DNA of 64,000 bases. Origin: Myxococcales bacterium. Its GTDB lineage: Bacteria > Myxococcota_A > UBA9042. Below the pieces are notes generated by a model, which ran no database searches, had not been told where the DNA came from, and saw nothing but the letters and a program-made list of their open reading frames with translations. The DNA lies in NCBI GenBank assembly GCA_002726535.1, contig PBTG01000079.1:9615-73614 (forward strand), given 5' to 3'. Shown piece by piece: positions 1,222 through 45,059 of the stretch (position 1 is its first letter; each line of letters starts with the position of its first letter). A program made the translations under genes and the position numbers.

Positions 1222-1256
1222 CGGAACCCTTACACGACGAGCAAGTCTCGAAAATT

Positions 1257-1541
1257 ATGCCAACCCCAACACCACGTAATCCGATCAGGCCGGCCCGCGG
1301 AAATTACGCGGACTTGCTGGCGAACATTCTCAGCCTTTATGAGGGCGAGCTTTGCTACGCGGTCGACCAGGACATCCTTTACGCAGTGGAGCAAGGCGCT
1401 TTACAGCCAGTCAATGAATTAGCAGTCCCAGGCTCTGACCCCTTGCTGACCAATATTCAAAACGCACAGCCAGGCGATTCCCTTAACTACAACGGCAGTC
1501 AGTGGGTCAGCGGGGGGCCTCAAGACGGCGGAAACTTTTAG
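1257..1541 (+). CDS. Small fibre-associated protein (C-terminal NGSQWV motif resembling fibre C-termini)
   Basis: ORF track. N-terminal NYADLLANILSLYEGELCYA resembles the N-terminal motif of neighbouring fibre ORFs. C-terminal GDSLNYNGSQWV resembles the ...WNG..WVP endings at 36960 and 38520. Confidence 0.35.
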   Translation: MPTPTPRNPIRPARGNYADLLANILSLYEGELCYAVDQDILYAVEQGALQPVNELAVPGSDPLLTNIQNAQPGDSLNYNGSQWVSGGPQDGGNF

Positions 1542-1595
1542 GAAGGCTTTGAGCTGGAAGCCTGAAGGGACCTGATCGATCGGTCTCTTTTTTTT

Positions 1596-3083
1596 ATGGC
1601 TAACCAAATCCGAATAAAGCGCAGGGCGAGCTCGGGCTCGGCAGGCGCCCCTGCATCACTCCTAAACGCAGAACTCGCTTACAACGAAGCTGACAACGTT
1701 CTGTATTACGGCTATGGCGACAACGGCTCAGGCGTTGCCACCTCCGTGGTCTCCGTTGCTGGCAACGGCAACAGCGTTTCACTGGGTACGACCCAGACGA
1801 TCACTGGAGACAAAACGTTCTCGGGCCTCCTAGACGCCACGGGCACCTTCAAAATCGACGGAGTAGAGGTCACCGCTTCTGCTGCTGAAATCAACTATCT
1901 GGTCGGCGTAACGTCAGGCGTCCAGGCCCAGATTGACGGCAACGAAACTCATATAGACAACTTGGCCACCCTTTCTGGCGTTGCCAAAGACGGGGTCGAC
2001 CTTGGCGCGTTTACTGGATCGACAATTGCTGATGACCTAACTATCAAGTCAGCCTTCCAGGCCCTGGAGACAGCCCTCGAGGACGGCTCAGGCCAGGTAA
2101 CCGCTGATAGCGGAACTGCTGAGTACGTCAGCGGCAACCTCAACATCAACGGCGGCACAGGCCTCAGCACGACCGGCGACAACTCGCAGACATTGTCGAT
2201 CGCTCTCGACAACACAGCCGTCACCGCTGCTGCCTATGGCACAGCCGATGCCGTCCCCTCCTACACAGTGGACGCACAGGGACGCTTAACCGCTGCCGCC
2301 GATGTCTCCATCGACATCGTCCACACACAGGTCTCCGACTTCGATGCAGGCGTACAGACCAACACCCTCGACAGCCTGGCTCAGCCTGTTGCTGCGGTTG
2401 TACTGAACGGACAGAAGATCACCGGCCTTGCCGACCCTGTGAACGCGCAGGACGCCGCAACGAAGGCCTACTGCGACGCCACTGCGAACGGCTTAGACGT
2501 CAAGGACTCCGTTCGTGCCGCTACGACCGCCAACGTCACTCTGAGCGGTACTCAGACCGTTGATGGCGTATCTCTGGCGTCTGGTGACCGCGTGCTGGTT
2601 AAAGACAACACAGACGCAAGCGAGAACGGTATCTATGACGTCGTTGACGGTGGCGCGTGGGTTCGTTCTGCGGACGCCGACAACAACCCCGGATCTGAGG
2701 TCACCTCAGGGATGTTCACCTTCGTTGAAGAAGGCACCAACTACGCCGACGCTGGCTTTGTCCTGCAGACGACCGGCGCAATCGTCCTCGACACCACCGA
2801 CCTGGCTTTTGTTCAGTTCTCCGGCGCTGGTCAGATCACCGCTGGGAACGGCCTCGCCAAGAGTGGCAACACACTCGATGTGGGCACTGCTGACGCAACT
2901 CGCATCGTCGTCAACGCTAATGACGTCGACCTGGCCACTCATGGCACCGCCGGCACCTACAACGGCCTGACCGTTGACGCCTACGGACGTGCGAGCAGCT
3001 TTGTTCAGCCAACGACCATCGCTGCTTACGGGATCACCGACGGCCTGACGACAAGCTCCATCGTCGACGGCGGCACGTTCTGA
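1596..3083 (+). CDS. Tail fibre protein (495 aa)
   Basis: ATG at 1596 follows a T-run. N-terminus IRIKRR..P.SLLNAELAYNE.DNVLYYG carries the shared fibre anchor motif. Composition is Ala/Gly/Thr/Val-rich. C-terminal GDRVLVKDNTDASENGIYDVVDGGAWVRSADAD is a classic phage fibre/tailspike tip motif. Confidence 0.6.
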   Translation: MANQIRIKRRASSGSAGAPASLLNAELAYNEADNVLYYGYGDNGSGVATSVVSVAGNGNSVSLGTTQTITGDKTFSGLLDATGTFKIDGVEVTASAAEINYLVGVTSGVQAQIDGNETHIDNLATLSGVAKDGVDLGAFTGSTIADDLTIKSAFQALETALEDGSGQVTADSGTAEYVSGNLNINGGTGLSTTGDNSQTLSIALDNTAVTAAAYGTADAVPSYTVDAQGRLTAAADVSIDIVHTQVSDFDAGVQTNTLDSLAQPVAAVVLNGQKITGLADPVNAQDAATKAYCDATANGLDVKDSVRAATTANVTLSGTQTVDGVSLASGDRVLVKDNTDASENGIYDVVDGGAWVRSADADNNPGSEVTSGMFTFVEEGTNYADAGFVLQTTGAIVLDTTDLAFVQFSGAGQITAGNGLAKSGNTLDVGTADATRIVVNANDVDLATHGTAGTYNGLTVDAYGRASSFVQPTTIAAYGITDGLTTSSIVDGGTF

Positions 3084-3209
3084 TAGATCCGTGAACCGAG
3101 GAACCCTAGTGCTCGGGATGGATCGGCCCTCGCCACTGCGGGGGCTTTTTCTTTGCAACGGGAATCCTAGTTCGAACAGGCCTAGATAGGCCGCAACACT
3201 GACGCCAAA

Positions 3210-3524
3210 ATGGCCAACACTGTCAAGCTAAAGCGCTCTGCAGTAGCGGGAAAAGTCCCGTCGACAGGGGATCTTGCCCTGGGCGAATTAGCTCTCAATA
3301 CGTTTGACGGCAAGGCATACATCAAAAAATCAGCCAACGGTACGGATGAGGTCATTGAGATCGGCTCAGCCAGTACGCCGATGGTGCTCACTACCAAGCG
3401 CGTGATCGACGAGAACGTGGTTGTGGCTAGCGGTGAAAATATTCTCAGCATCAACGACGTCACTGTCGCAAATGGATTCTCGGTTGAGGTCCCGACAGGT
3501 AGTACGTGGATCGTTGTGGGGTAG
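3210..3524 (+). CDS. Short fibre-like protein with the N-terminal anchor motif
   Basis: N-terminus VKLKRSAVAGKVPSTGDLALGELALNTFDGKAYIKK matches the motif of ORFs 1596, 33695 and 37472. Preceded by a GGAATCC..GTTCGAAC element. Confidence 0.4.
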   Translation: MANTVKLKRSAVAGKVPSTGDLALGELALNTFDGKAYIKKSANGTDEVIEIGSASTPMVLTTKRVIDENVVVASGENILSINDVTVANGFSVEVPTGSTWIVVG

Positions 3525-3692
3525 TCCGGGTTCTGAAAGGAACAGGTAGACTAAAAACGTCCTTTACACAGTTCTTGTCTCCAAAACGGACGGTTTAAGT
3601 AACCCCTAGGGCGGCCTGAGAACCCGCTCTTTTTTTATCGTCTTTCGGAAGCCTTGGGCGACCGGGCAGATGCCCACCGCGAAAATCGCCTT

Positions 3693-6617
3693 ATGGCATT
3701 CGGGAAGATTTACGTCGACGAGGTTATCGACTCAAATGGAGACACTCTCGACATTTCAGAACTCACCTCCAACGAGGCGACTAATGCAGCTAAGGGCTAC
3801 TTATCAGCAGCAGACAAGGCCAAGCTTGATGGTGTTGCTGCAGGTGCAGAGGTCAACGCAGTCACAAGCGTTAACGGCTCGACGGGTGCCGTCACTGTTC
3901 AGGGCTTCTCAGGCGATTATGCAGACTTAACTAATAAGCCAACAATTCCAACAATTGACCCAAATACTGTTATCGACAGCGGCTATGTAGCAACTGACGA
4001 GAACTTCACAACGTCAGACCACAGCAAGCTGGATGGCATTGAGACTGCAGCAACAGCAGACCAAACCAAAGCAGATATTGATGCACTAAATATTGACGCC
4101 GATACCCTTGATGGACAGCATGGTTCTTATTATACTGGTTATACAGACACGGCAGTTGCGGGTCTCGTATATTCTTCCCCAGCCACTTTAGATACATTAA
4201 ATGAATTAGCAGCAGCTTTAGGGGATGACCCTAATTTTGCCACTACAACTGCCAACAGTATTGGCACTAAGTTGTCAAAATCTGGCGGTCAGATGACGGG
4301 GAATATAACGTTCTCTGGGTCACAAACTGTTGATGGTAGAGATTTATCTGCTGATGGGGCCAAGCTGGATGGCGTTGCCGCAGGTGCCCAGGTCAACGCG
4401 GTCACATCGGTGAACGGCGCAACTGGCGCTGTCACGGTCCAGGGCTTCTCTGGCGCGTACGCCGACCTAACAGGCAAGCCAACGTTAGGCACTGCAGCAG
4501 CTACAGCATCCAGTGCCTACGCCACATCGACCCAGGGTGCTACGGCCGACAGTGCTCTACAGCCAGGGGACGCCAACCCTGTGATGGTTTCTGCTGTTGG
4601 AGATCTCCCCAGCGCATCATCGAATCATGGAGCAGTGATTCATGTCCACAATGAGGGCGCGATGTACTTCGCTCACTCAGGCTCATGGCACAAGCTGCAG
4701 AACGAGTCCTCGGCTTTCTCTGGGTCATACAGCAACCTGAGCAATAAGCCGACGATCATTGCGAACACCTTCAGCACGTCAGCACCCTCATCACCTAGTA
4801 CCGGTGATCTTTGGGTAGACACAACAGACACCCCTCCGGTCCTGAAGTCGTACAACGGCACAGCATGGGTTGCTGTTGGATCTGCAGGTTCCTCAACGAG
4901 CGCACCTGTGATCAATGGCGTGACGTTGTCAGAAGTTGACAGCTCAGGTGATCGCTTCACTAGCGAGTCCTTCACTGTCGCGGTCAATATGCTCGACGAT
5001 GGCTCTCCTATCAGTCAGAAGGGCGTCAAGGGCAAGGTCACCGCAACATTCGAGCAGTTCCCAGTAAGTAACGCTATTACGGCTGGGACGGTATCTACTT
5101 CCCAGACTAGTGAGGGCAATACGACTAAAGATAGTTCAACCAACCTGACACACAACGAGAGTACGGGGGCAGTCTGTTTCAACGTCGTAGACACAAGCAC
5201 TAATTCGGTTAGGTGCTTTATGTGGTATCCCGAGGGCAGCGGTAGTAGCTACGACGATATGTTAGAGAACAGCGGGAAAGATCTGTTAGCTTATACCAGC
5301 GTCGATAATGACTTTTACGGCACCGGTGAATACAAGCAGGGATTAGCCGGTGTGCAAAATAGATTGGGCACCTGGGTAAATATTATGGGCAGGCACAACA
5401 ATGTACAAGCGGCCTTCGAGGTGTCCGGGCTTCTGTCGGGCAACCCTGTAAGGTCAAACAAGAACGAAGTGTCGACAGATGCCTATATATATGTTTCTAA
5501 TGGAAGATCGTTTACTCGATATGATTTAAACCGACAAAATGGTATTAGTTTGTTTTTGGGAGGCGTTCCCTATAGCGGTGGTGGCGGCCCATACTTCATG
5601 GAAACCTTGAGCGATAGGATATTCATTGTCTCACAAAGTAGCACCAGCGGTTCTCTTTGGACTAAAGAGCTAACAGACGCTGCCAGTGCCAACTTGTCCA
5701 ACGGCAACTACATTTACCAAGATAATAATCAATCGGGCTTCAACCGGTACGACATAACGGGCTGCATTTTTCACAAAGGAAAAGTATTAATAAGTAAGGG
5801 CATTAACGGGGGCGGTATTTACGCATTTACCCCAGGCACCTCAAGTCCTACGATTTCAGGCATACCAGCGGCACCTTCTGGTTATCAAAATACTTACGGT
5901 GCGATCTGGGAAGATCCCCTTGGCAATTTAATACTTAGGACAACACACTTTAGCACCGATTGGTCGACTCAAGCTGCTTTCTACTATTCGAGTAACAACA
6001 ACGGCGCGACATGGGTTGCTAATCACTACCCATACGATTCAAACTTTAATTATGAGTATTGGACCCCAGACCTCTACCTATACGGACGGCGTCAAAAGTC
6101 CAAAAGAATAAAAGGCAGCGGCTTATCTGCCACTGTGACAAAGCAGGTCTACACAATACGCTCTCAGACGCTCACCGTCACAAATGGAGCAGATCTGAGT
6201 TCCCTGAACGTTGGAGACATCGTTAGACCGCCCGGCGAGACGGATCCACTTAAGTACTCAAAGATTGATTCAATCTCTTCGAATGGCAATGGGACGACAA
6301 ACGTTGTAGTCAATGGCTTCAATGATTTCGCTGTAGGCGATGTAATTGAGTCCACCGCATCCACCGGATCTGCTACCTCGACGAGGTTCCTCGTGATCAA
6401 TGCTCAGGGCGCCATTACGACCCATCAAGTCAGCGACCCTGGCTTTGTAACTCAAGGCCCTGGAGCGTCACACACGATCACGTTCCCTGCGACGTTCCCT
6501 ACAGGTAACTCTCCAGATGATGAGCTACCTAGTGGAACAACAATCCAGGTCGACGTCCAGGCCGTCAACTCTGAGGCCTCTGACACCTACGCATCCAACA
6601 CCCTCACCCCTTCCTAA
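3693..6617 (+). CDS. Large tail fibre / receptor-binding protein, paralogue A (frame open from TTG 3654; first ATG 3693)
   Basis: Two copies of a ~50-aa KLDG(V/I)xAGAxVNAVTSVNG(S/A)TGAVTVQGFSG repeat. Central region has Asp-box-like SNNNGATW. The C-terminal 80 aa is nearly identical to paralogue B (..ITFPATFPTG..DDELPSGTTIQVD..NTLTPS). The conserved 5' UTR is shared with 6642-6700. Confidence 0.65.
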   Translation: MAFGKIYVDEVIDSNGDTLDISELTSNEATNAAKGYLSAADKAKLDGVAAGAEVNAVTSVNGSTGAVTVQGFSGDYADLTNKPTIPTIDPNTVIDSGYVATDENFTTSDHSKLDGIETAATADQTKADIDALNIDADTLDGQHGSYYTGYTDTAVAGLVYSSPATLDTLNELAAALGDDPNFATTTANSIGTKLSKSGGQMTGNITFSGSQTVDGRDLSADGAKLDGVAAGAQVNAVTSVNGATGAVTVQGFSGAYADLTGKPTLGTAAATASSAYATSTQGATADSALQPGDANPVMVSAVGDLPSASSNHGAVIHVHNEGAMYFAHSGSWHKLQNESSAFSGSYSNLSNKPTIIANTFSTSAPSSPSTGDLWVDTTDTPPVLKSYNGTAWVAVGSAGSSTSAPVINGVTLSEVDSSGDRFTSESFTVAVNMLDDGSPISQKGVKGKVTATFEQFPVSNAITAGTVSTSQTSEGNTTKDSSTNLTHNESTGAVCFNVVDTSTNSVRCFMWYPEGSGSSYDDMLENSGKDLLAYTSVDNDFYGTGEYKQGLAGVQNRLGTWVNIMGRHNNVQAAFEVSGLLSGNPVRSNKNEVSTDAYIYVSNGRSFTRYDLNRQNGISLFLGGVPYSGGGGPYFMETLSDRIFIVSQSSTSGSLWTKELTDAASANLSNGNYIYQDNNQSGFNRYDITGCIFHKGKVLISKGINGGGIYAFTPGTSSPTISGIPAAPSGYQNTYGAIWEDPLGNLILRTTHFSTDWSTQAAFYYSSNNNGATWVANHYPYDSNFNYEYWTPDLYLYGRRQKSKRIKGSGLSATVTKQVYTIRSQTLTVTNGADLSSLNVGDIVRPPGETDPLKYSKIDSISSNGNGTTNVVVNGFNDFAVGDVIESTASTGSATSTRFLVINAQGAITTHQVSDPGFVTQGPGASHTITFPATFPTGNSPDDELPSGTTIQVDVQAVNSEASDTYASNTLTPS

Positions 6618-6624
6618 GACATCA

Positions 6625-6644: not shown

Positions 6645-6699
6645 ATTGCTTATTCGGAAGCCTTTTGCGACCGGGCAGATGCCCACAGCTCACCCGCAA

Positions 6700-9570
6700 A
6701 TGTCGGATTCCTACGGAAAAATAAAAGTCGACGAGATCGAAAATTCAGACGGAACTCTGCTCGATCTAACGACAGCAGTGACGACAGAAGCGACGACCTC
6801 AACGAAGGGCTACTTATCCGCAGCAGACAAGGCCAAGCTCGACGGTATCGAGGCCGGCGCTGAAGTCAATGGGGTGACTTCTGTCAACGGCTCGACCGGG
6901 GCCGTGACCATTCAGGGCTTCTCTACAGCAAACAATGCCAAGCTCGACGGGATCGAAACAGGGGCTACGGCAGATCAAACTAAAGCAGATATTGATGCGC
7001 TGAACGTTGACGCAGATACCCTTGACGGTCAACACGGCTCTTATTACACAGGCTATGCGGATACAGCAGTTGCAAGCCTTGTAGATTCGTCTCCTAGCAC
7101 TCTTGATACGCTTAATGAGCTTGCCGCGGCACTTGGTGATGACCCTAACTTTGCGACTACGGTAACCAATAGTATTGGCACTAAGTTACCACTTGCTGGT
7201 GGTCAGATGACGGGAAACATAGCGTTTTCCGGGTCACAAACTGTTGATGGTAGAGATTTATCTGCTGATGGTTCTAAACTTGATGGAATCTCTGCAGGTG
7301 CAGAGGTCAACGCAGTCACAAGCGTTAATGGTGCGACGGGTGCCGTCACTGTTCAAGGATTTTCAGGCGATTACGACGACTTGACTAATAAGCCAGACGG
7401 CTCAGGTTCAGGATTAGATGCTGACAAGGTTGATGGTCTTGAAGCAACTAGTTTCTTAAGATCTGATGCTAATGCTACTTATAACGGTGGTATGCTGACC
7501 ATCAGGTCAAATAGTAACGTCGGAAATTACTGGGCAACAGGTATAGAATATGACAGTGGATGGAAGCATACAAACGCAAATAGTTGGGGATTTGCTTTTA
7601 GGAATAATGGAACCAATGGTTTGCAAATTAAAGTCGCTTCTGAAGCAGGAACAAACCAAAGTGCTGCAACTTACAGGGTGCTGGATATTGGTGGCGCTAC
7701 TCAGAGATTAAAATATGACAACTATGATGTTTGGCACGCAGGAAATTCGACCCCCATTGAGAATGCTTTTGGGTCTTCAGCGCCCTCATCACCTAGTACC
7801 GGCGACTTCTGGGTAGACACCACAGACGACCCCCCGGAGCTCAAGTCATACGATGGTACGGCCTGGGTCCCCATGGGCTCCTCAGCTCCAACCGTTAGCG
7901 CTCCAATCATCAACGGCGTCACGCTGGCAGAAGACAACACGTCCGGCGCTCGCTTCACGAGCAAAGGATTTACGGCAACGATCAACATGCTCAACGACGG
8001 CGCCCCTATTAGCCAAAAAGCTGTAAAGGGCAAGGTCACCGCAGCATTTGAAACGTTCCCAGCTATGCCCGCTGCGTCCTCCAACAGCAGCTCGAGTTAT
8101 GCGAACGGATCTTCTCTTACCGTTCTCAACCGCTGGCAGGTCGACGCCGACGGTGTTCGGATACCAGTCAACGAGCCAGGTCGCAGAGGCTTTCTGACCC
8201 TTTACAGATACGCAGCCAATAATTCGACGGCGCAATCTTTCTACTTCTCCGACGACATGGATATGGAATGGTATAACAGTGGCACCCTGCTTCTCAGTGA
8301 TTTCGGAAACCAAACCACGAAGCCGACATACACAAACATCGTACATCCGACTAACAATAACGCGATAACCCTATACAACGCCTACACTAAGGACAGGGCT
8401 TATGTGATGTACTGGGACGCGAATGGTGCCTTCCAGGTTGCCAATCAATTAGGCGGCCAGGTACTCACTGATCCAGACAATCCGAACAGCGAATATTTTC
8501 AATGGAGCAGCCAGACTAATGGGAGCATGAAAAGAATGGACAAGTATCCCAGCCCAACTACGACCACCACTTCTAACGGCGCCAAAAACTCACTCGGTTT
8601 GTATAACGTTGATGATACGTTTGCTGTAGGGAATGGCATCATTGTTGCCGCAGGACGCAGCTCGGGTGGTAACAATTATCGACCCACTATCTTCACCCGC
8701 CCCGTCAACTTCGGCCAAAACTCCGGCCCTACTAGCTACTTTTTCGGGGCATCGTCAAACAGGAACATTAACTTCATTAAGTACGTGAAGGGCTACTTCT
8801 GGCTTGTCGATAATTCAGAATTGTTCCGGTCATCCACGGGAGCACAGAGCAGTTGGACGTCTATTAATACTAGCTATAACGGAAATGGTCAAAAGCTTAA
8901 GGACATAACAGTCGACCAGAACGGGCACCTGGTCGGCGTGTTCGTCCAAAACAGCAACGGCTCCTCCCGGATGATGAAATCCAATAACTTTGGAGCTACC
9001 TGGGTCTTGTACGGCAGCCTGTCGAACCCTCCTACGAGCGAATATCAGTCCGTTTTCGTTGCAAACAACAGGATTTACGCCTCGGTTCACACCCATTCTG
9101 CGACGATAAACTGGGCCAAGGTAAACACTCAGACAGTCACAGTCTCATCGACTGGCGGTGATTACAACGAATTCAACGTGGGTGACCTTGTCAAGCCTCA
9201 AGGCTCAACCGACTCAGGCGACGTCGGCAAGATCGAGTCAATCTCCGGCACAAGTATTGGCCTCGACTCCCAGTATCTCTACCAAGTGGGAGATGTAATT
9301 GAGGCGACCAACTCAACAGGAACCGCCACCGCGACCCGGTATCTCGTGATTAGCGGGACCGGTGCTATCTCGACCCATCAGGCGAGCGACCCTGGATACG
9401 TGACTCTCAACGCTGGCACCTCCCAGACGATCACCTTCCCCGCAACATTCCCGACAGGCGAAACACCTGACGATGAACTGCCCAGCGGAACGACCATCCA
9501 GGTCGACATCCAGGCGACCAACTCCCAGGCCTCCGACACCTATCCATCCAACACCCTCACCCCTTCCTGA
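6700..9570 (+). CDS. Large tail fibre / receptor-binding protein, paralogue B (alternative ATG 6679; ORF track starts 6517 overlapping upstream gene)
   Basis: Its N-terminal KLDG/VNAVTSVNG repeats and C-terminal 80 aa match paralogue A. The central ~650 aa differ and contain Asp-box-like SNNFGATW. The stop overlaps the downstream chaperone start (TGATCATG). Confidence 0.65.
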   Translation: MSDSYGKIKVDEIENSDGTLLDLTTAVTTEATTSTKGYLSAADKAKLDGIEAGAEVNGVTSVNGSTGAVTIQGFSTANNAKLDGIETGATADQTKADIDALNVDADTLDGQHGSYYTGYADTAVASLVDSSPSTLDTLNELAAALGDDPNFATTVTNSIGTKLPLAGGQMTGNIAFSGSQTVDGRDLSADGSKLDGISAGAEVNAVTSVNGATGAVTVQGFSGDYDDLTNKPDGSGSGLDADKVDGLEATSFLRSDANATYNGGMLTIRSNSNVGNYWATGIEYDSGWKHTNANSWGFAFRNNGTNGLQIKVASEAGTNQSAATYRVLDIGGATQRLKYDNYDVWHAGNSTPIENAFGSSAPSSPSTGDFWVDTTDDPPELKSYDGTAWVPMGSSAPTVSAPIINGVTLAEDNTSGARFTSKGFTATINMLNDGAPISQKAVKGKVTAAFETFPAMPAASSNSSSSYANGSSLTVLNRWQVDADGVRIPVNEPGRRGFLTLYRYAANNSTAQSFYFSDDMDMEWYNSGTLLLSDFGNQTTKPTYTNIVHPTNNNAITLYNAYTKDRAYVMYWDANGAFQVANQLGGQVLTDPDNPNSEYFQWSSQTNGSMKRMDKYPSPTTTTTSNGAKNSLGLYNVDDTFAVGNGIIVAAGRSSGGNNYRPTIFTRPVNFGQNSGPTSYFFGASSNRNINFIKYVKGYFWLVDNSELFRSSTGAQSSWTSINTSYNGNGQKLKDITVDQNGHLVGVFVQNSNGSSRMMKSNNFGATWVLYGSLSNPPTSEYQSVFVANNRIYASVHTHSATINWAKVNTQTVTVSSTGGDYNEFNVGDLVKPQGSTDSGDVGKIESISGTSIGLDSQYLYQVGDVIEATNSTGTATATRYLVISGTGAISTHQASDPGYVTLNAGTSQTITFPATFPTGETPDDELPSGTTIQVDIQATNSQASDTYPSNTLTPS

Positions 9571-9883: not shown

Positions 9884-9921
9884 TTGCCCCTTCGGAACCC
9901 TGACGCAGCAGCGGTTCCCGA

Positions 9922-12900
9922 GTGTCTGAAGCAAAGAAACTCGACGCTCGGATGCTCCAGTGGCAGGACCAGTTAAGCGGCCTGACTGAGACAAACAGGG
10001 AGCAAGTAACACGCACATTGGCGCGTTCAATCAGCGGGACAGTGGCCGATCTGAAAGTTGCCTACAGCAAGTTCAACGCATCAGAAGGAACGAGCAACCG
10101 ATACACCATCGAAAGCCAGACGGTGAGATTCAGAGAGCTCACCAAAGCAGCCGAGGGGTTGATAGGCCCAGGAGCGCTAAAGAACATCAAGGCGATCTAT
10201 GAAAACGATCTAAACGACGCCTACTCGCTCGGGACGTCTGCAAGCAGAGATCTCACCAAGATCGTTGATGGCGCGGACACAAGCGCACAAGCAATGATCT
10301 CGAAGATGCCTGTAGCTGCGCAGGCAGCAGCAGGTCAGAACTTGATGCAGTTCTGGGACAAAGAAAAAGCAGCCTTAACCAACAAAGTCAGAGAAGCGAC
10401 CCTCTCCGCATTGCAGCGCGGCAAAGGATGGGCATCAGCTCAAAAAGACATCGCACAGGCCCTTCGCTCAAGTGGCCAGACAATCCTGAGGGGTAGAGAC
10501 GAGCTCAGCGTCACGGCCCGCGGCGGAATCGTGATGAACCTCGAGCAGCGGGCTGATCTGATCGCAAAGACGGAGATGGCTAACGCTTACATCCAGGGCC
10601 AGATATCGCAGTACAAACAAAACGGATACACACACGGCAGATGGTCGGCCACGGGTGAAAGAACTTGCCCGTTTTGTGTGAGTCGTGAGGGCAACATCTA
10701 TACCCTCGACGAGCTCGAAGGCGCGATCCCTGCGCATCCTCGCTGTCGTTGCACGATCGCCCCTGTCCTTGAGGAGAACGTCAAGAACGTCCAGAACGCA
10801 AGGGACCAGGGAGCGTCGGCGGCCCTGAACCTTGACGACGCTGGATGGACGGCAATACGTCAACAACGATTCAACGAATACCAGAAGTTCACCGGCAAGC
10901 CATTAGCTGATCCATCTAGGTGGATGAATGCGCCTACCAGTCGCCAAAAATTTCTAAACCCCAGGGCACAAGGAGACAAGCCCGCGTGGATGCCGTCGGG
11001 GAATGTTGTGCCAAACCTCGAGGGCGCACAGGCCGCCGCGATCAGAGCAAAGGATCTCGAGGCCGCTTCGAAAGAAGACCAGAAGGATCTGGATGCACAG
11101 AACAAAGAGATCGAAAAGCAGAAGCAAGCCGCGAAGCTGGTGAAAGAGCGCAAGGGCGAGGAGTTCACCTTTAAGCGCTTTAGCGACGCTACCGGCGACG
11201 AACCAGGTCCGGACACGAACTGGACTTCCGAGAGGCAGAAGCTGCACGACAAAATTGTTCAGAACTTCCTGAAGGACGGCAAGAAAAGCGCGACTCCAAC
11301 TTTCACCATGTCTGGCGGCGGCCCGGCTTCAGGGAAGGGCTTCATGCTGAAGAAGACCGGCCTAGATCAACCCGGCAAGGTAGTGATTGATGCCGATGAG
11401 ATCAAAAAGCTCATCCCTGAGTACGCCAAAGCCCAGAAGAAAGGCGGCGATGCACAGCAAGCTGCGGCGGGCGTTGTTCACGAGGAGTCGAGCTATCTCG
11501 CCAAGCGAATCATGGGCGAAGCTTCCAAGCGTGGTTTTGACATCGTTCTCGACGGCACTGGAGATAGCGGCATCAAGTCGCTAACCAAAAAGGTTCAGAA
11601 GATGCGCGATGAGGGGTATCGAGTTGAGGGGAAATATGTCAGCGCAGATACGGAGACCGCTGCACAGCGCAACTGGGATCGCTTCCTCAAAACTGGCCGG
11701 CTCCCACCCGAGTGGATGCTCCGCAATGTTCACGCCGACGTCTCGCGCACTTTGCCTAAGGCAATGCAGGACGGCCTGTTCGATGAGATCGAGCTTTATG
11801 ACACGAACAAGTCAGGGGAGCTGCGCAAGGTAGCCAGCCAGAAGGGCAAAAATAATCCAAAGATCCACGACAGCAAACTTTGGGACGACTTCAAGCGCAA
11901 GGGTGAGGCTGGACTTGTCACAAAAGAGCAGGGCGAGCGGCTAATCGAAGCCCGCAAACTGAAGGTGGACGTTAAAGCCAAGAGCAGCCACGGCAAGCAC
12001 AGCAATGCTCGCGCCGAAGGGGCCGAGCCTGGCCCCGATACCGTGTGGACCCTTGACCGCCAGAAGCTCCATAAGGAGATTGTCGACAAGTTCCTCGCCA
12101 ACGGTGCCAAGTCGGCTAACCCGACGTTCACCATGAGCGGAGGCGGCCCCGCTTCAGGTAAAGGCTTCATGCTGAAAGCCACTGGACTCGACAAGCCCGG
12201 AAAGGTCGTTATTGACGCAGACGAGATCAAAAAGCTGATTCCCGAGTATGCGGATGCCCAGAAGAAAGGTGGCAAAGCCCAACAGCAGGCAGCCGGATAT
12301 GTCCACGAAGAATCGAGCTACCTGGCCAAGCGGATCATGGCCGAAGCTGCGAAGCGCAGTTATGACGTCGTACTTGATGGCACAGGCGATAGCGGGATCA
12401 ATTCGCTATCCAAAAAAGTGCAAAAAATGCGTGACCAGGGCTATCGCGTTGAGGCGAAATACGTCAGTGCTGACACCGAGCTGGCTGCGCAAAGGAATTG
12501 GGATCGCTTCCTGAAAACAGGACGCCTACCGCCCGAGTGGATGCTTCGGAACGTTCATGCCGATGTGTCTCGGACACTTCCCGAGGCAATGAAGAAAGGC
12601 CTATTCGACGCGGTGGAGCTGTTTGACACCAATCTGAGCGGCCAACTGCGCAAGGTCGTCAGCCAGAAAGGCAAAAGCAAGCCCGAGATTCTCGACAAGC
12701 AGTTATGGAACGACTTCCAGAACAAGGGAAAAGCCAAGCAGGTCACGCCCGAGGAAGGCGAGGCAATGATCGCCAAGCGAAAGGCCGAGACCGAGGACCT
12801 CTCAAAGACAAGATCTGCAGGCACAGGCAAAACACCCGCAAAGACAAAGCCTTCCCCCACTAAGGCAAAGGAGAGCGACATGGTTGACCGGGCGACGCGA

Positions 12901-15667: not shown

Positions 15668-15738
15668 TTGGCCTGAGAAGTCAATGCCTGAGTGAGCTTT
15701 TCATCTGACGGAACACTCAGGCAGTACCAAACTGACCA

Positions 15739-18204: not shown

Positions 18205-18216
18205 TATTCGGAACCC

Positions 18217-18699
18217 TTGAGGGATTCCAGACGTGCTCCTGTGACCTACTACGAAACCAGCGCGGTCCCTGACATCTCAACGGTCTGGGGCGAAAATGCA
18301 GCTCCCCTAAGCCAGACCAGAGAAGAGACAAGAGAGGACCTGCGCCGCATCCTGAATATCCCAGTAAGTCTTGAGGGCCTAGGCAATCTGACCCGTCAAA
18401 TGAACGCAACCGCTGAGCTTTCTGGCTCCGCCGCTGCAGGCATCGAAGCAAATATCGGGGAGTACAAAACGCTCGAAACCAGCCGAACCGCGATCCAGAA
18501 CAAAGCTTCGTGGGATGGGAGCGCACCACTGAAAAAAGCAGACGTCGTGGAGTACGACACAAGCCTTCTCGCCAGACCTGACGCGATCATCGCCCAGACG
18601 CAGGGGATCAACGCCCGCATGGGCCAGCTCGAAATGGAGATTCGCGTCTCATTAGGTCTGACGCCTGGACATGGCACCGCTCGCCTGTATCGCAGCTAA
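18217..18699 (+). CDS. Hypothetical virion/morphogenesis protein
   Basis: ORF track. Preceded by GGAACCCTTGA at 18200. Its stop overlaps the next start (TAATGG). Confidence 0.35.
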   Translation: MRDSRRAPVTYYETSAVPDISTVWGENAAPLSQTREETREDLRRILNIPVSLEGLGNLTRQMNATAELSGSAAAGIEANIGEYKTLETSRTAIQNKASWDGSAPLKKADVVEYDTSLLARPDAIIAQTQGINARMGQLEMEIRVSLGLTPGHGTARLYRS

Positions 18700-19714: not shown

Positions 19715-19747
19715 CCTCGGAACACTGGGCCAGTTCCCGGCTAACCC

Positions 19748-20466: not shown

Positions 20467-20928
20467 TTGCATGAGGCGGAAATTGGTGTGGCCAACCTCA
20501 CGGCCCTGACTGCCAACCTGAATCGCGACACAAAAAAGAGCAGGACCCCTTACAAGGCGGCTGACTTCTGCTTCTTTGCCAACAGTGCGGAGCGCAATGA
20601 TCCGGATGAGATCAACGCTGCGGCATATTTCGCATTACTTGAAAGCAAGCAGCTTCCGACCTGGGCTCTATTCATTTACTCAGAGATGAAAAAAATAAAT
20701 ACATCCATGGAGCCTCCGGAGCCTTTAGCGGCCATTGGAGATGGATTCCTGCTACTTGCACCTGAGCAGGTTAATGGTGGCATAGAGGGTCTTCTGATTG
20801 CGGAGAAGAGAGTCTCGGGTCAGGTTGTAGAGGTTAAAATAGGCCGCATAAAAGCTAAAATTACATGTCCAGAATTTGAGGAAATGCTGCTAGCTCGCGA
20901 GCACGTTTTTGTCAGTATTGATCGGTAG
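20467..20928 (+). CDS. Hypothetical protein
   Basis: ORF track only. Confidence 0.3.
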   Translation: MHEAEIGVANLTALTANLNRDTKKSRTPYKAADFCFFANSAERNDPDEINAAAYFALLESKQLPTWALFIYSEMKKINTSMEPPEPLAAIGDGFLLLAPEQVNGGIEGLLIAEKRVSGQVVEVKIGRIKAKITCPEFEEMLLAREHVFVSIDR

Positions 20929-21294: not shown

Positions 21295-21382
21295 TTAGAA
21301 GTTCGAGCCTTAACCGTTGACAGATGCTTGAAAAACATGTGGACCCTCTGGGCTGTCTGCCCAAGGATTCCGGGCGTCATCA

Positions 21383-23149: not shown

Positions 23150-23180
23150 TATTGGAACCCTAGTCGGAATCTAGGGGCCT
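23150..23180 (+). promoter_or_regulatory. GGAACCCTAG motif copy upstream of tape measure gene
   Basis: TTGGAACCCTAGTCGGAATCTAGGGGCC contains GGAACCCTAG plus an inverted CTAG..CTAGG pair. Lies 25 nt before GTG 23185. Confidence 0.3.
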
Positions 23181-27417: not shown

Positions 27418-27429
27418 TCGGAATGCTGA

Positions 27430-27451: not shown

Positions 27452-27799
27452 ATGTTTGATTTCTCATCCCCTGAGTCCTCGCTGCAAATGCTGCAAGACG
27501 CAAGACGGGCGAGCCCTGGAGGTGGTCCTGGTATTAGCGAACTGCCGCTAGACGAGCAGTCGGAGTATGAGCTGAAGTGTTCGCTCGCCTACGCATATTC
27601 CGTTGCTCGGGTGGCCCTTAACGAATACGGGGAGGATGTGGCGATGTTGGCTAAGGCTGAGTTTGACCGGGTTTGGTTAGCGCTGATTGATGTCGATGAA
27701 GAGTTTAAAAAGAACGTGATATCGGGAACTGCGCGGCCTCCTATTGGAGCGGCCAAGCCTTACCAGGACTTCGCCAAGGGCAAAACTTCGGAACTCTAG
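27452..27799 (+). CDS. Hypothetical tail-module protein
   Basis: ORF track. Follows a terminator-like hairpin at 27430-27449. Confidence 0.35.
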   Translation: MFDFSSPESSLQMLQDARRASPGGGPGISELPLDEQSEYELKCSLAYAYSVARVALNEYGEDVAMLAKAEFDRVWLALIDVDEEFKKNVISGTARPPIGAAKPYQDFAKGKTSEL

Positions 27800-30541: not shown

Positions 30542-30577
30542 GCCGGAACACTACAGCGACAGAAAAGCTGCTAACCC

Positions 30578-32095: not shown

Positions 32096-32134
32096 CCGTC
32101 GGCACCCTAGGCGGACCTGATCGCGTCTTAGGCA

Positions 32135-33658: not shown

Positions 33659-33694
33659 AGATCGGAAAGATAAGGCAGCTTGTGAATAGTTTCT

Positions 33695-37441: not shown

Positions 37442-37453
37442 CCGGAACCCTAG
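37442..37453 (+). promoter_or_regulatory. Representative copy of recurrent cGGAACCcTAG motif (candidate late promoter -35-like element)
   Basis: CCGGAACCCTAG lies immediately after the stop of 33695..37441 and 20 nt before ATG 37472. Related copies at 1224, 9894, 18200, 21872, 23154, 32086, 38638, 39489, 40342 and 44939. Confidence 0.35.
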
Positions 37454-38635: not shown

Positions 38636-38669
38636 TCGGAACCATAGGCCGACAGATCAAGCCGGCTTA

Positions 38670-39464: not shown

Positions 39465-39518
39465 TCAGGGTTCGCACTCTAACTGGCCGGAACCATAGGG
39501 GGCAACTTTCTGCCGGGG

Positions 39519-40277: not shown

Positions 40278-40493
40278 GCCCAAAAAACGAGTGAGTTCGG
40301 GAGTTGACGTGGGCCACTTGCGCCAACTTCGGCACTCTCTCGGAACCCTAATCACGAGATGGAAGATGCCCTGGTTCTGATTCGGTGCGACGCCGATTCG
40401 GTGGCCTGGGCAGAACGGACCCCTTGAGGTGTGACGCCTCTGTTCCGAACTTCCCAGATCACCAACTCAATGTCACTCTGACAACTCAGAACA

Positions 40494-41809: not shown

Positions 41810-41828
41810 TCCGAACAACAACAACAAA

Positions 41829-42734: not shown

Positions 42735-42753
42735 TCTGGACGGACACAGACCG

Positions 42754-42942: not shown

Positions 42943-43392
42943 GCTAAGGCTCGAAGGTTTCGCCGAACTCGGTAAGGATCGACATCTGATCCTCTCGGGG
43001 TTTTGGCTCCAGCTCTTTCGGTATATCAACGACAACATCCTCGAAGCGGGTTCGGCAGAAGTAGGGGACATCTCGACCTGAGCCAGAGGTCTCAAACCAC
43101 AGTCGCCCCTTGAGTTCGCCCCTACTCAAATTTTTCACCTGCCCAGAAGTTCTGCACCTTACTCACTTTTAGCGTGAGTGAAAAGCTGAAGCCTATGGGC
43201 CGAACCCACCAACACAAGCCGTCAGATTCGACGCAGGTGGTGAGAATCGGCTCGGGAATATCCGCCCTCCTGCCCTGCTCATTCCGCTCTAGGCGGCCCA
43301 GGTCTGTGCAAATTATATCGTAACCGGCCAAACACTTGGGCGATATTCTTCGGGTCATGGCCTGGCCAAGTTCTTCAGAGTGTTCCGACGGG

Positions 43393-44085
43393 TCAGCGGG
43401 CGATGATGCTCCACCCCGTCCCAGGTCCCTCGACCTGCCAGCGCCTTCCCCAGTTTTTCTCGCTGTATCGAACTGCTTGGCCTGCCGTGATCCAGGTATC
43501 GACGTAGCCACCCTCCACGAGGTTGGCTTCACCGAAGGGATCGTTCACAACCGCTGACTCGCCCTCAAGGCCAATCACACAGGACCAGTGACCGCCGCCC
43601 GAAGGGGAGGAGACATGGCCTTTATGCAGCCAGCCACAGGGAACGGGGAAGCCCTGACGGATCTGATCCTCGAGCGTTTCCCAGCTTGCATCGGTGACGA
43701 ATTCGACGTCTAATCCGTAAGAGCGGAGCGCTGAGATCTGAGCGCTCGAATCCGTTGTATCTCCGTAATGCTCGACGGTCTCCAGATATTCGAGATCGCC
43801 GTTAGGGCCGCTGAGAGTCCCTGGGCGCAGGTACTCGAGCAGCATCGCGCAAGTAGTTGTGAAGCATTGCCTATATCCATGAGGCCCGTTGTCGAGCTGG
43901 ATCATGTGGCGCACTTTCAGGACGCGATCGGATGACTCGAGACCGTTCCTATAGATACGTGCGAACTCATCCAACTCCTCGAGCGTTAGCAGGTCCTCGA
44001 GGTATTCGAAGGCCTGGACCTGATGGGGCTCACCCTTGTAATAGGTGGCCGCATTAACCAGAGAGATCGAGTTGTCGGCTGCCAT
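43393..44085 (-). CDS. Papain-like cysteine peptidase (C39-like/CHAP-like), candidate endolysin
   Basis: Catalytic-type Cys context QCFTTTCAMLLEYL and His context GGGHWSCVIGLEGESAVVNDPFG match the C39-like peptidase pattern (Q..C...M; GH.VV..G.....V.DP). Confidence 0.45.
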   Translation of the reverse strand: MAADNSISLVNAATYYKGEPHQVQAFEYLEDLLTLEELDEFARIYRNGLESSDRVLKVRHMIQLDNGPHGYRQCFTTTCAMLLEYLRPGTLSGPNGDLEYLETVEHYGDTTDSSAQISALRSYGLDVEFVTDASWETLEDQIRQGFPVPCGWLHKGHVSSPSGGGHWSCVIGLEGESAVVNDPFGEANLVEGGYVDTWITAGQAVRYSEKNWGRRWQVEGPGTGWSIIAR

Positions 44086-44131
44086 GGTCGTCTCCGAATC
44101 ACGCCAGGGTTCCGATCAGATCGTCAGCCGC

Positions 44132-44482
44132 TTAACGCCACCTGCGGTCCTGCTGCTCTCGAAGTCTTCTCAGTTCGACCGCTTGATCGTTTACGTGAAA
44201 ATCCATCCGCTCTGATAAATATTTAACGTCTTTTTTAATCTCCGACATGCTGTCGAAGAGGCGATTCATTGCACCTTCAAAATCGTGCTTCGTGATGTAA
44301 TCCTCAGCTACCTTAAGCTCAACAGAATCAATTTTTTGTAAGGCCGTTTCTGCGACCGCTCTGGCCTCCTCCGTTCTCTTAAATGTAAAAGCGCCCCAAC
44401 CGAGAACACTAGAACAAACAGCAGCAATGACGAATTCAGGTAACACGGACTGAAGACAGTTAACCAAGGTTTCCGGCTTCAA
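44132..44482 (-). CDS. N-terminal TM + coiled-coil protein (i-spanin-like / lysis-associated)
   Basis: LPEFVIAAVCSSVLGWGAFTF hydrophobic helix, then a charged helical region. Adjacent to the peptidase gene. Confidence 0.35.
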   Translation of the reverse strand: MKPETLVNCLQSVLPEFVIAAVCSSVLGWGAFTFKRTEEARAVAETALQKIDSVELKVAEDYITKHDFEGAMNRLFDSMSEIKKDVKYLSERMDFHVNDQAVELRRLREQQDRRWR

Positions 44483-44651
44483 TTAATGAAAAAGGGGACT
44501 TAGCCCCCAATTTCTCGAATGAGTCTTTGCGCCTGTTTTTTGTCGATACCTTCGGGCGCATTTCGCAAGCATCGAATCATTACTTCCTGATCGCTAATGG
44601 GCAGCCGCTTGACTCGCCCATTGCTGCCAATAGGGCTCTCTACTTTCTCCA

Positions 44652-44900
44652 CTACTCAGAAAAGCGACGGCGCGGGGCCTTCTTCTTGGGCGCCTCTTCG
44701 ACCTGCTCAGCAGCAGGAGTTTCCTTCACTTCCTCGACGACTGGCTCTTCTTTCTTGGGGGCCTCATCGACGCCGTTTTTCTTGGTCGTGATAGCGCCGA
44801 GCTCTAAAGCCTCGAGGGCATCGGCTGGGTGGTAAAACTCGACGACGTTGCCGGCTAAGTCGTAGTAGGTGGGCTGGGCCATGGTGGGCTGTGAAATCAC
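44652..44900 (-). CDS. Hypothetical protein with Lys/Pro/Glu-rich tail
   Basis: ORF track. C-terminal EAPKKEEPVVEEVKETPAAEQVEEAPKKKAPRRR. Confidence 0.3.
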   Translation of the reverse strand: MISQPTMAQPTYYDLAGNVVEFYHPADALEALELGAITTKKNGVDEAPKKEEPVVEEVKETPAAEQVEEAPKKKAPRRRFSE

Positions 44901-45059
44901 TTCGACTCAGTGTTCCGAGCCTCTCCGTTTTGACCTGGGAACCCTGTTATGTGAAGTCCTGTTGAGATGGGGAGGGGGATAGTGTGTTGAGACTTATGGG
45001 GAGACTTTTAAAACTACCCCTAGTCTATGACTGGGATCTAAGCGAATCAAAGCCCTCTT

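Follow-up and report, generated by a model that had tools for sequence, protein, structure and literature searches.

This locus raises the question of what a short word, repeated in the small gaps ahead of the structural and lysis genes of a cyanobacterial virus, does there and, if it is a promoter, which sigma factor reads it. The window, i.e. the whole 64,000-nt stretch of DNA that was analyzed (contig PBTG01000079.1, positions 9,615 to 73,614), had been the subject of a preliminary description in which GGAACC was proposed as a late-promoter element for a phage-encoded sigma factor.

Recurrence and placement of the motif

The repeated cGGAAnnCTa motif in front of these genes is real. The octamer GGAACCCT occurs 12 times in the window against 1.85 expected, a count reached in none of 100 shuffles, and an unbiased k-mer test of gaps read in gene orientation ranks it first; every one of the copies is non-coding (p = 7e-14, the non-coding share of the window being 8.0%) and oriented with the downstream gene. 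The enrichment holds for the octamer but not for the bare hexamer GGAACC, which shows none overall (37 copies against 33.3 expected, with 29 of 100 shuffles reaching 37); its placement is nevertheless non-random, 16 of the 37 copies being non-coding (binomial p = 7e-9). Around 30 sites in the window fit the consensus t-C-GGAA-N-N-C-T-a, and a matrix built from other phages only gives 21 matches of at least 11 bits, 19 of them non-coding, as compared with about 7.7 in shuffles. The sites and their contexts are as follows:

1223..1231 (+), GGAACCCTT, 34 nt 5' of the ATG of 1257..1541
1556..1564 (+), GGAAGCCTG, 40 nt 5' of the ATG of 1596..3083 (virion structural/head decoration-like)
3100..3108 (+), GGAACCCTA, adjoining the stop of 1596..3083 and 5' of the terminator 3125-3146; orphan or uncertain
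3161..3169 (+), GGAATCCTA, 15 nt past the terminator stem 3125-3146, 49 nt 5' of ATG 3210
3647..3655 (+), GGAAGCCTT, behind a T-run, 46 nt 5' of ATG 3693 (tail-fibre-like, 974 aa)
6656..6664 (+), GGAAGCCTT, 17 nt past the terminator stem 6624-6639, 44 nt 5' of ATG 6700 (tail-fibre-like paralogue)
9894..9902 (+), GGAACCCTG, 17 nt past the terminator stem 9862-9877, 28 nt 5' of GTG 9922 (1734-aa minor head/MuF-type fusion)
15710..15718 (+), GGAACACTC, 29 nt 5' of GTG 15739
18210..18218 (+), GGAACCCTT, 31 nt 5' of GTG 18241
19719..19727 (+), GGAACACTG, 29 nt 5' of ATG 19748
21363..21371 (-), GGAATCCTT, 5' of the lone minus-strand gene 20890..21294, paired back-to-back with 21404(+)
21404..21412 (+), GGAAGCCTG, 30 nt 5' of ATG 21434 (probably the true start of ORF 21383..21856); kept in relative L006
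21882..21890 (+), GGAACCCTG, 51 nt 5' of ATG 21933 (major tail protein)
23154..23162 (+), GGAACCCTA, behind a hairpin and T-run, 31 nt 5' of GTG 23185 (tape measure protein)
27420..27428 (+), GGAATGCTG, 32 nt 5' of ATG 27452
27790..27798 (+), GGAACTCTA, overlapping the final codons of 27452..27799, 29 nt 5' of ATG 27819
30545..30553 (+), GGAACACTA, 33 nt 5' of ATG 30578; site kept at the orthologous junction in five phages
32101..32109 (+), degenerate GGCACCCTA, 34 nt 5' of ATG 32135
33664..33672 (+), GGAAAGATA, 31 nt 5' of GTG 33695 (1248-aa tail fibre/baseplate-like); detected only by the matrix trained on other phages
37444..37452 (+), GGAACCCTA, 28 nt 5' of ATG 37472 (tail-fibre-like); site kept at the orthologous junction in five phages
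38638..38646 (+), GGAACCATA, 32 nt 5' of ATG 38670
39489..39497 (+), GGAACCATA, 30 nt 5' of GTG 39519 (head scaffolding protein)
40342..40350 (+), GGAACCCTA, 152 nt (a long leader) 5' of ATG 40494 (major capsid protein, sharing 56% identity with that of S-CBS2); kept in relatives L006 and L008
41860..41868 (+), GGAATACTT, immediately behind a hairpin and T-run, 30 nt 5' of ATG 41890
43378..43386 (-), GGAACACTC, adjoining the endolysin stop, without a convincing downstream ORF (orphan)
44105..44113 (-), GGAACCCTG, 28 nt 5' of ATG 44085 (endolysin, 43393..44085, minus strand)
44908..44916 (-), GGAACACTG, 34 nt 5' of ATG 44882 (gene 44652..44882, minus strand), back-to-back with 44938(+)
44938..44946 (+), GGAACCCTG, 46 nt 5' of GTG 44984, inside a 501-nt divergent region
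50593..50601 (-), GGAACCCTG, past the stop of 50604..50891(-), 32 nt 5' of a short ORF and upstream of 50106..50426(-)
60368..60376 (+), GGAACCCTC, 31 nt 5' of ATG 60399, overlapping the 5' arm of a terminator-like hairpin with T-run; kept in relative L084

All of the sites named in the preliminary description exist, exactly where they had been placed at 9894, 23154, 37444, 38638, 39489, 40342, 30545, 3161, and 6656, one nucleotide away at 1224, 32086, 44939, 19718, and 3646, and ten away at 18200 and 21872 (correctly 18210 and 21882). The one at 32085 (GGAACCCAT) is doubtful and lacks the conserved T8. New to the list are the plus-strand sites at 1556, 3100, 15710, 21404, 27420, 27790, 33664, 41860, and 60368 and the minus-strand sites at 21371, 43386, 44113, 44916, and 50601, of which all but 43386 (4/5) lie upstream of minus-strand genes. 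Two local features are of note: the site at 3100, if a promoter, would fire directly into a complete terminator, and the palindrome GTTCGAAC at 3170, directly after the late element 3161..3169, is clearly operator-like in this genome.

Sites are found in 24 of 30 late-region (structural/lysis) gaps versus 2 of 17 replication-region gaps (Fisher p = 8e-6), and the genes downstream include those for the major tail protein, tape measure, scaffold, capsid, tail fibres, and endolysin. Motif orientation matches gene direction on both strands, with back-to-back pairs at three divergent junctions (21371-/21404+ and 44916-/44938+ in the window, 2879-/2885+ in relative L013). Sites also lie about 15 nt (15-17) downstream of the strong intrinsic terminators ending at 3146, 6639, and 9877, and sigma70-type promoter matches in the 1-20 kb region are below chance (5 versus 9.1). 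When the sites of the window and its relatives are pooled (64 sites), the first G (G1) stands 28-35 nt ahead of the start codon in 49 and the distances break off sharply below 28 nt, in keeping with the earlier observation that the motif follows a stop codon and precedes the next start by 20-50 nt. This module-specific, gene-oriented placement after terminators and in pairs at divergent junctions bears out the proposal of a late-gene transcription signal in a sigma-encoding phage.

Profile of the element and its likeness to known promoters

Orthologous junctions of S-CBS2, S-CRES3, P-SS2, and metagenomic relatives retain the element, which shows a strong strand bias in the three named phages (14/0, 11/1, and 12/1, respectively), and across the orthologous gaps of five phages nothing but GGAA..CTA and the ATG is unvarying. 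In the 64-site profile, A4 and T8 are fixed and positions 5-6 are free, the invariance of positions 1-4 and 8 being partly imposed by the search pattern; the first position of the motif is C in 40 of the 64 sites, a purine signal appears at positions 14-15, and there is no information at the -35 location or at the location of a downstream -10 (positions 22-30). Among relatives C5 varies (GGAAT/GGAAG/GGAAA) and C7, T8, and A9 are kept; the central pair of bases reads CC in the window and TA in S-CBS2 and S-CRES3, and is mixed in P-SS2.

Taken with its likeness to the J-Box, this pattern leads us to propose, with a probability of roughly 0.55, that the motif is the core of phage late promoters, a J-Box-type single-element extended -10 most likely read by a second phage sigma. 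In the predicted register, C-15 G-14 G-13 A-12 A-11 N-10 N-9 C-8 T-7 A-6, sigma region 2 would capture A-11 and T-7 as flipped bases, the two Gs would form the upstream extension contacted by region 3, and a -35 element would be unnecessary. Transcription would start about 14-16 nt past the first G, giving 13-20-nt leaders before most structural and lysis genes. If the motif is itself the -10, this would also explain why the preliminary description could identify no -10 partner.

The J-Box (GGGaAtacT) is the extended -10 of the cyanobacterial group 3 sigma SigJ, accompanied by a weak -35 (Gonzalez et al. 2019, mSphere; PMC6495340), and is nearly the same sequence as cGGAAnnCT; the phage variant GGAATACT of S-CBS2 and S-CRES3 agrees with it at 8 of 9 bases. 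As single-element promoters, both combine a nearly constant A and T, with three bases between them, Gs directly 5' of these, and a weak or absent -35. The gvpA start site lies 10 bp past the center of aAtacT (PMC6495340), and the same rule applied to the phage element would place +1 at positions 15-16, the same distance. On the other hand, the phage element mostly has C-G-G where the J-Box has G-G-G, its middle two bases are free and lineage-dependent, it serves viral structural and lysis genes, its presumed sigma is shorter than usual for group 3 and scores under the family cut-offs, and its +1 is a predicted one.

The sigma70 extended -10 (TGnTATAAT) shares with the late element the G at -14, A at -11, T at -7, and -35 independence, but position -12 of the late element is A in place of T, with G at -13 and C at -8, and poor reading by a primary sigma is therefore likely. 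The window also holds a second promoter class that fits the sigma70 type, with register (G-14 G-13 T-12 A-11 ... T-7) and spacing common to the late element:

56626..56633 (+), GGTAGACT, second promoter class, 34 nt 5' of RecT

Late promoters read by phage-encoded sigmas are known from T4 (gp55, with TATAAATA) and SPO1 (gp33/34). As here, a short word stands in tiny gaps before many late genes; the phage supplies the specificity factor, as is predicted here, and the T4 late promoter likewise consists of a -10 without a -35. However, the sequences are unrelated to the cyanophage element, and the T4 late system requires gp33 and the sliding clamp. The sigmas of these cyanophages belong to the ordinary sigma70 family and contain regions 2 and 3.

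Two phage sigma factors as candidate readers

The preliminary description had assigned the motif to the only sigma factor encoded within the window:

58028..58924 (+), group 1/2-like sigma factor

This protein finds its best matches in cyanobacterial SigA/RpoD across regions 2-4 and is not ECF-like. The likelier reader is a SigF-like sigma encoded after terL. All relatives with readable terL context, including the collinear L084, carry such a second sigma directly after that gene, and the window stops short of its own terL by about 640 nt. In the genome of the window, the gene for this reader, a short group 3 protein of SigF/SigJ type, would lie some 2 kb past the right end. The post-terL sigmas best match cyanobacterial SigF (NF005644, E 1e-18 to 1e-23), scoring against each NCBIfam model under its curated cut-off; their alignment covers regions 2-3.2 and their C-terminal domain is short, the presumed late sigma being about 205-245 aa and thus much shorter than typical group 3 sigmas, and they belong to a large phage-borne family of at least 729 proteins. 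At the residue aligned with sigma70 E458, which reads the extended -10, all of them have Glu; the 58028 protein has Phe. Ahead of the relatives' post-terL sigma gene itself stands another kind of promoter, the sigma70-like extended -10 (T)GGTAGACT, which suggests a cascade in which early and middle promoters would yield the group 3 sigma and this in turn the late genes.

An extended -10 late promoter read instead by the 58028 sigma is, in our estimation, unlikely. Besides being the one sigma actually within the window, the protein retains the FSTYA segment of the A-11 pocket, its region 2.4 (WIHKGMKE, against host-type WIRQAITR) could fit A over T at -12, and a gene of this type occurs in all motif-bearing genomes where examinable (also PMC2784084). 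However, in S-CBS2 and S-CRES3 the orthologous protein carries a host-like region 2.4 (WVRQALGK) and the motif is present there all the same, whereas S-CBS3 and KBS-S-2A, phages with a group 2-like sigma only, lack the motif, a contrast of four genomes against two that is confounded with lineage. Moreover, the motif fits the group 3 promoter type, not that of group 2 (PMC6495340). The 58028 sigma is thus probably not the cognate reader.

Readings without a phage sigma, and the -35 model

An RNA-level signal, either a site of processing or cleavage or an element in the 5' leader of polycistronic late transcripts (for instance leaders that start with a stabilizing hairpin or help translation start), appears improbable. 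The tight spacing to the start codon, the strand-specific position, and the location of some sites, such as 3100, upstream of terminators would suit it, as would the hairpins between motif and start codon, which exceed the shuffle level (19 of 64 sites with z below -1.5) and whose stems differ in sequence between phages at one orthologous junction. The late-promoter reading leaves these hairpins, after about 30% of sites, unexplained because a +1 at 14-16 would remove their 5' arm. Yet about 70% of sites have no hairpin, the motif or leader element matches no Rfam family, sites stand directly behind strong terminators, and no upstream transcript exists at divergent back-to-back copies or isolated opposite-strand genes; the fixed A and T three bases apart with upstream Gs also have the shape of a -10 in a mapped promoter class (PMC6495340).

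Even less probable is that a SigF/SigJ-like group 3 sigma of the host reads this same extended -10. J-Boxes are widespread 5' of pilB in cyanobacteria with SigJ or SigF (PMC6495340), but group 3 sigmas are reported to be uncommon in marine Prochlorococcus (PMC2784084), the phages bring their own SigF-like gene, and dependence on the host would provide no temporal switch. There is only a slim chance that the motif is bound by a late activator or some other regulatory DNA-binding protein and that the actual promoter elements stand at another place in the gap: a brief conserved word of DNA, set at constant spacing from the genes, would agree with this, as would the operator-like behavior of GTTCGAAC in the same genome, but the motif is asymmetric and strictly oriented, the gaps hold no other conserved element, and those of 30-36 nt are too small for separate promoter elements.

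The original model, which makes GGAAC the -35 box of an ECF-type promoter recognized by the phage sigma, is scarcely tenable: GGAAC does resemble ECF -35 cores and C5 is common in the window itself, but the likeness to ECF promoters (GGAAC with a CGT-type -10) is confined to these letters in the window's commonest variant, no conserved -10 follows at 16-19 nt, C5 varies among relatives that keep C7-T8-A9, no ECF-type sigma was identified (the 58028 protein resembles RpoD/SigA, and the post-terL protein, which has regions 2 and 3, resembles SigF), and the start codon lies at most 31 nt from G1 in 34 of 64 sites, so that a -35 box would place +1 inside the gene. Further copies of the GGTAGACT class are found at 3545, 58915, 60789, and 62318.

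Distribution and shape of the late element

The window covers 64 kb of a siphovirus genome, has a G+C content of 55%, and carries its genes mainly on the + strand, among them structural genes (tail-fibre-like, a minor-head fusion of 1734 aa, major tail protein, a tape measure of 1410 aa, and scaffold) and, after the lysis cassette, a replication/recombination module with primase, DnaB, RecT, a sigma factor, SSB, a PDDEXK nuclease, and ThyX. The major capsid protein is 56% identical to its counterpart in Synechococcus phage S-CBS2; the closest published relatives are S-CBS2 and S-CRES3, with P-SS2 further off. The preliminary description had reported GGAACC as a motif recurring upstream of the structural genes, an observation that holds with corrections. 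The bare hexamer occurs at chance level (37 observed vs 33 expected), and the enrichment resides in the extended word GGAACCCT, with 12 copies vs 1.85 expected, all 12 located in the non-coding 8% of the window (p=7e-14). The + strand has ten copies and the - strand two, both of the latter before or between minus-strand genes, and the word ranked first among all 6- to 8-mers in an unbiased count over gene-oriented gaps. The coordinates first proposed were exact or 1 off, apart from two sites that were 10 off; the site at 32086 is degenerate. When gaps of at least 25 nt were compared between modules, the late element, an oriented cGGAAnnCTa word, was present in 24 of 30 structural or lysis gaps vs 2 of 17 replication-region gaps (p=8e-6). 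A weight matrix trained solely on other phages and then run on the window returned 21 hits vs ~7.7 in shuffles, 19 of them non-coding, and added sites at 33664, 44916 (-), and 43386 (-). The lysis cassette, on the minus strand at 43393-44916, is embedded between plus-strand modules.

Genes of the lysis cassette
44652..44882, - strand, acidic protein of 76 aa, with a late element at 44916
44132..44482, - strand, 116-aa protein with an N-terminal hydrophobic segment
43393..44085, - strand, endolysin, with a late element at 44113

Sixty-four sites were pooled from the window, its flanking contigs, S-CBS2, S-CRES3, and two metagenomic relatives, and positions were counted from G1, the first conserved G. 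The consensus reads t-C-G-G-A-A-n-n-C-T-a-g, followed by a weaker purine enrichment at positions 14-15, GGAA and T having been preset in the search pattern; these fixed letters are independently confirmed by two orthologous-junction alignments made without reference to the motif, since GGAA..CTA and the ATG alone are invariant in the gap. C7 is found in 59/64 sites, the base before the two conserved Gs is C in 40 and G in 7, and beyond the consensus and the purine signal no further conservation was detected between -35 and +55. Relatives carry the element at the same junctions with other letters at positions 5-6 (GGAATACTA, GGAAGCCTA, GGAACACTA, GGAAAGCTA). The distance from G1 to the start codon is 28-35 nt in 49/64 sites, with a mode of 28 nt (12 sites) and no site at 24-27. 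Hairpins between motif and start codon are commoner than in shuffles, yet occur at ~30% of sites, some being terminators; a hairpin as an obligatory part of the element was rejected, as z lies below -1.5 in only 19/64 sites, several of them terminators.

Candidate extended -10 promoters

The preliminary description had read GGAACC as the -35 box of ECF-type late promoters. In ECF promoters the -10 lies 16-17 nt downstream of GGAAC, and the transcription start falls ~32-36 nt from G1, upstream of the start codon. Across the 64 sites, however, information is ~0 at positions 22-30, where the -10 would fall, with no conserved element at a spacing of 16-19 nt, and in 34 of them the start codon is no more than 31 nt from G1, a distance at which a -35 box would place +1 within the gene. 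The C of GGAAC is moreover variable among relatives, and C7-T8-A9 is constant. ECF (group 4) sigma factors comprise regions 2 and 4 only, whereas the protein encoded at 58028..58924 (+) aligns to SigA regions 2-4 and the short sigma encoded directly after terL in related phages (post-terL sigma) has regions 2 and 3. A -35 box serving leaderless mRNAs was likewise discarded, as no -10-like signal appeared on alignment to either the start codon or the motif and the spacing is too short.

An A and a T three bases apart, preceded by Gs and lacking a -35, are instead the signature of an extended -10, and it is plausible that the motif is a late promoter associated with a phage sigma factor; this much of the original interpretation stands, without its ECF -35 box and probably without the sigma it named. 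The late element shares G-14, A-11, and T-7 with the sigma70 extended -10 (TGnTAnnnT) but carries A-12 and C-15 in place of T-12 and the TG at -15/-14. A closer comparison is provided by the J-Box, GGGaAtacT, described as an extended -10 class of SigJ, a group 3 sigma of cyanobacteria (Gonzalez et al. 2019, PMC6495340). The A and T were proposed there to be flipped bases, with the Gs as an extension recognized by domain 3; the -35 is weak, the start site of gvpA is 10 bp beyond the centre of aAtacT, and SigF was suggested as a possible further reader (PMC6495340). The aAtacT core has a near-invariant A and T three bases apart, as do A4 and T8 of the phage element, which are invariant at orthologous junctions, and the weak or dispensable -35 is matched by phage information of ~0 at -21 to -16 from G1 and everywhere upstream of -6. 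The GGAATACT of S-CBS2 and S-CRES3 agrees with the J-Box at 8/9 bases. On the other hand, the J-Box has an absolutely conserved trio of Gs, whereas the phage element conserves only two. By the J-Box rule, +1 would fall at positions 15-16, coinciding with the purine signal and giving leaders of 13-20 nt. In the searchable literature, which lacked most subscription journals and with them the S-CBS2 genome paper, we found neither a paper that connects cyanophages with the J-Box nor start-site data for this phage lineage; the late element would be a promoter of a known kind, useful and directly testable, and not surprising in principle.

The genomic setting is promoter-like. Strong intrinsic terminators at 3146, 6639, and 9877 are each followed ~15 nt later by a late element, and the elements at 3647, 23154, and 41860 come after other hairpin plus T-run structures. 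Isolated opposite-strand genes have a late element upstream, and at three divergent junctions late elements stand back to back where there is no upstream transcript to process. Matches to sigma70-type promoters in the structural region are fewer than chance, and searches for Rfam families and tRNAs in the window gave none. At some sites a strong hairpin and T-run, then the ATG, come right after the late element (window 60368-60398, S-CBS2 32942 and 33353, S-CRES3 60675). A promoter-in-terminator arrangement may explain these awkward sites: with +1 at 14-16, inside the 5' arm, a new transcript could not form the terminator, and upstream read-through would stop there. A translation signal complementary to the 16S rRNA 3' end was set aside: GGAACC has the sequence of a part of E. 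coli helix 45 itself and not of its complement, and cyanobacteria have another sequence at that place. A phage single-subunit RNA polymerase has no candidate among the large ORFs, which encode tail, head, or unknown proteins.

Phage sigma factors as possible readers

P-SS2, S-CBS2, and S-CRES3 each carry two sigma genes, a group 2-like one before ssb and a short one directly after terL. The 58028 protein is of the former type (32% identity); it can be aligned with cyanobacterial SigA over regions 2-4, and its best match is the cyanobacterial RpoD/SigA model. The post-terL sigma of P-SS2 was termed group 3 by the authors of that genome (PMC2784084). SigF-like genes are present in S-CBS2, S-CRES3, P-SS2, and the relative L084. 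The best family match of the post-terL sigmas is cyanobacterial SigF NF005644, at 67-83 bits, which does not reach the curated cut-off of 261, and TIGR02980 gives 40-66 bits (cut-off 234); going by these scores, NF005644 is the nearest family, with no membership by curated threshold. The post-terL sigmas form a large, well-conserved, phage-borne family with members of 203-244 aa, represented by 64 viral-contig loci and by at least 729 proteins. In the 64 loci the motif was counted 52 times on the + strand and 7 times on the - strand, figures not taken as enrichment because the loci are mainly non-structural and the + count is close to expectation.

Post-terL sigma genes in relatives (proteins P0005-P0124)
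L003, 6832-7452
L002, 12572-13306
L016, 2091-2732
L084, 11569-12180

Regions 2, 3.0, 3.1, and 3.2 of the post-terL sigma align to solved sigmas, and its structural model has confident sigma2 and sigma3 domains followed by only ~48 residues in three short helices. No region 4 Pfam match was found in it, and Foldseek matched it to whole sigma factors and did not discriminate the C-terminal domain, which is unusually short. A CSGPPLEL segment is invariant in the family at the place of the region 3.2 finger. E458 of sigma70 contacts the extended -10; the Glu aligned with it is invariant in the post-terL family, and the 58028 protein has Phe at this place. In S-CBS3 and KBS-S-2A, which have a group 2-like sigma only (no SigF-like one annotated), the motif is not enriched. 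Given its RpoD/SigA-like character, this Phe, and these two phages, the 58028 protein, named in the preliminary description as the factor for the motif, is probably not its reader. Family, motif type, and this small phyletic contrast point instead to a second phage sigma ~2 kb outside the window, and we infer its presence from L084, which is collinear with the window (68-70% DNA identity over 54-63 kb) and has a SigF-like sigma of 203 aa right after terL. The case for late expression dependent on a group 3 SigJ/SigF-type sigma is circumstantial.

The window is a partial genome, and marine metagenome contigs with identical proteins continue beyond both of its ends.

Genes flanking the window
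terS and terL, starting ~100 and ~640 nt past the right window end (metagenomic contig L009, 11719-12707), preceded by a terminator and GGAAGGCTA
DUF4055 portal gene and ~8 kb of small genes, left of the window start (metagenomic contig L013, 1-8500)

Within L013 1-8500, each of three minus-strand genes is preceded by a late element. An exact-match scan of viral contigs with both window ends gave no match, and none of the 64 loci with a SigF-like sigma matched the window flanks at the DNA level. The metagenome contigs all end inside terL; the four retrieved contigs reaching this gene all break at almost one point within it, suggestive of a repeat, terminus, or variable insertion at this position.

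A probable second promoter class and a possible temporal cascade

A second word, GGTAGACT, occurs five times in the window vs 0.99 expected, always on the + strand.

Copies of GGTAGACT and its variants in the window
3545, 56626, 58915, 60789, and 62318, + strand, exact copies
16009 and 16344, variant GGTAGAAT
45267, variant GGTAAACT

It lies upstream of RecT and the PDDEXK nuclease at a distance of ~34 nt and upstream of ThyX and SSB at 54-60 nt, and in most loci (L020-L084) (T)GGTAGACT stands ~34 nt before the ATG of the post-terL sigma gene. It fits a sigma70-type extended -10, including T at -12 and TG at -15/-14, and probably represents the promoters of middle genes. Register and spacing are common to GGTAGACT and the late element, the main difference being T vs A at -12, which supports the -10 reading of the late element and suggests a temporal cascade. 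Taken together, these features would describe, for cyanosiphoviruses of the P-SS2/S-CBS2 lineage, a sigma cascade with a shared GG-extended -10 frame, a truncated late sigma, and terminator-nested late promoters, a joint reading to which we assign a probability of roughly 0.3. A single base at -12 would essentially distinguish middle from late promoters (GGTAGACT vs GGAAnnCT); the reader of the late class would be a truncated phage sigma that needs no -35 and has no normal region 4.2; and late promoters would often lie in or beside terminators that halt read-through and let transcripts begun inside the 5' arm escape. From an ecological point of view, P-SS2, S-CBS2, and their many uncultured relatives infect marine Synechococcus and Prochlorococcus and are abundant, and a candidate motif with ~30 sites per genome in a defined register makes the timing of gene expression experimentally addressable in culturable systems. 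The motif may also supply a rule for annotating late operons and true start codons across hundreds of cyanophage contigs from metagenomes and, if confirmed, would represent a virus that has taken over the J-Box, an alternative-sigma promoter class of host type, as an insulated switch for late expression.

Nine copies of an 8-bp palindrome, GTTCGAAC, are present in the window vs 1.17 expected.

Copies of GTTCGAAC in the window
3170, 13757, 15400, 21862, 29189, 47562, 54966, 55825, and 62304

Six of the nine adjoin promoter-like elements, all three classes being represented: TTGACA is directly preceded by the palindrome at both 15409 and 55834, GGTAGACT at 62318 and GGAACCCT at 21882 also have it upstream, and the copy at 3170 immediately follows GGAATCCTA at 3161. 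The palindrome resembles an operator bound by a dimeric regulator. A looser form, TTCGAAC, was found in many replication-region gaps; as a -35 partner of GGTAGACT or GGAAnnCT it was rejected, its spacings of 9-15 nt being inconsistent, and it has the appearance of a separate operator. Canonical TTGACA-N17-TAnnnT promoters mark the start of the rightward early region (47774-47803, 48658-48687, and 49441-49470), with further ones at 15409 and 55834; those at 48658 and 49441 share an identical stretch of 26 nt, TTGACAGATGGGGCACCTTGCCCCCA, and thus represent a duplicated promoter. Duplication is also seen among the structural genes, where 3693..6617 and 6700..9570 are tandem tail-fibre-like paralogues whose upstream regions (3525-3692 and 6618-6699) repeat the order of a terminator, GGAAGCCTT, and a GCGACCGGGCAGATGCCCAC stretch that is almost identical in the two. 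The 1734-aa protein at 9922..15126 has matches to MuF-like minor head, Zeta-toxin/AAA_33, and ParB-like nuclease families and to a portal-annotated PHROG, and is comparable to a 1500-aa 'head morphogenesis' gene product of P-SS2. At 216 nt, the region upstream of the major capsid gene (40278-40493) is unusually long, and its late element precedes the ATG by 152 nt; the capsid genes of S-CBS2, S-CRES3, and P-SS2 have no obvious element near the ATG and also follow long gaps, of ~180-195 nt.
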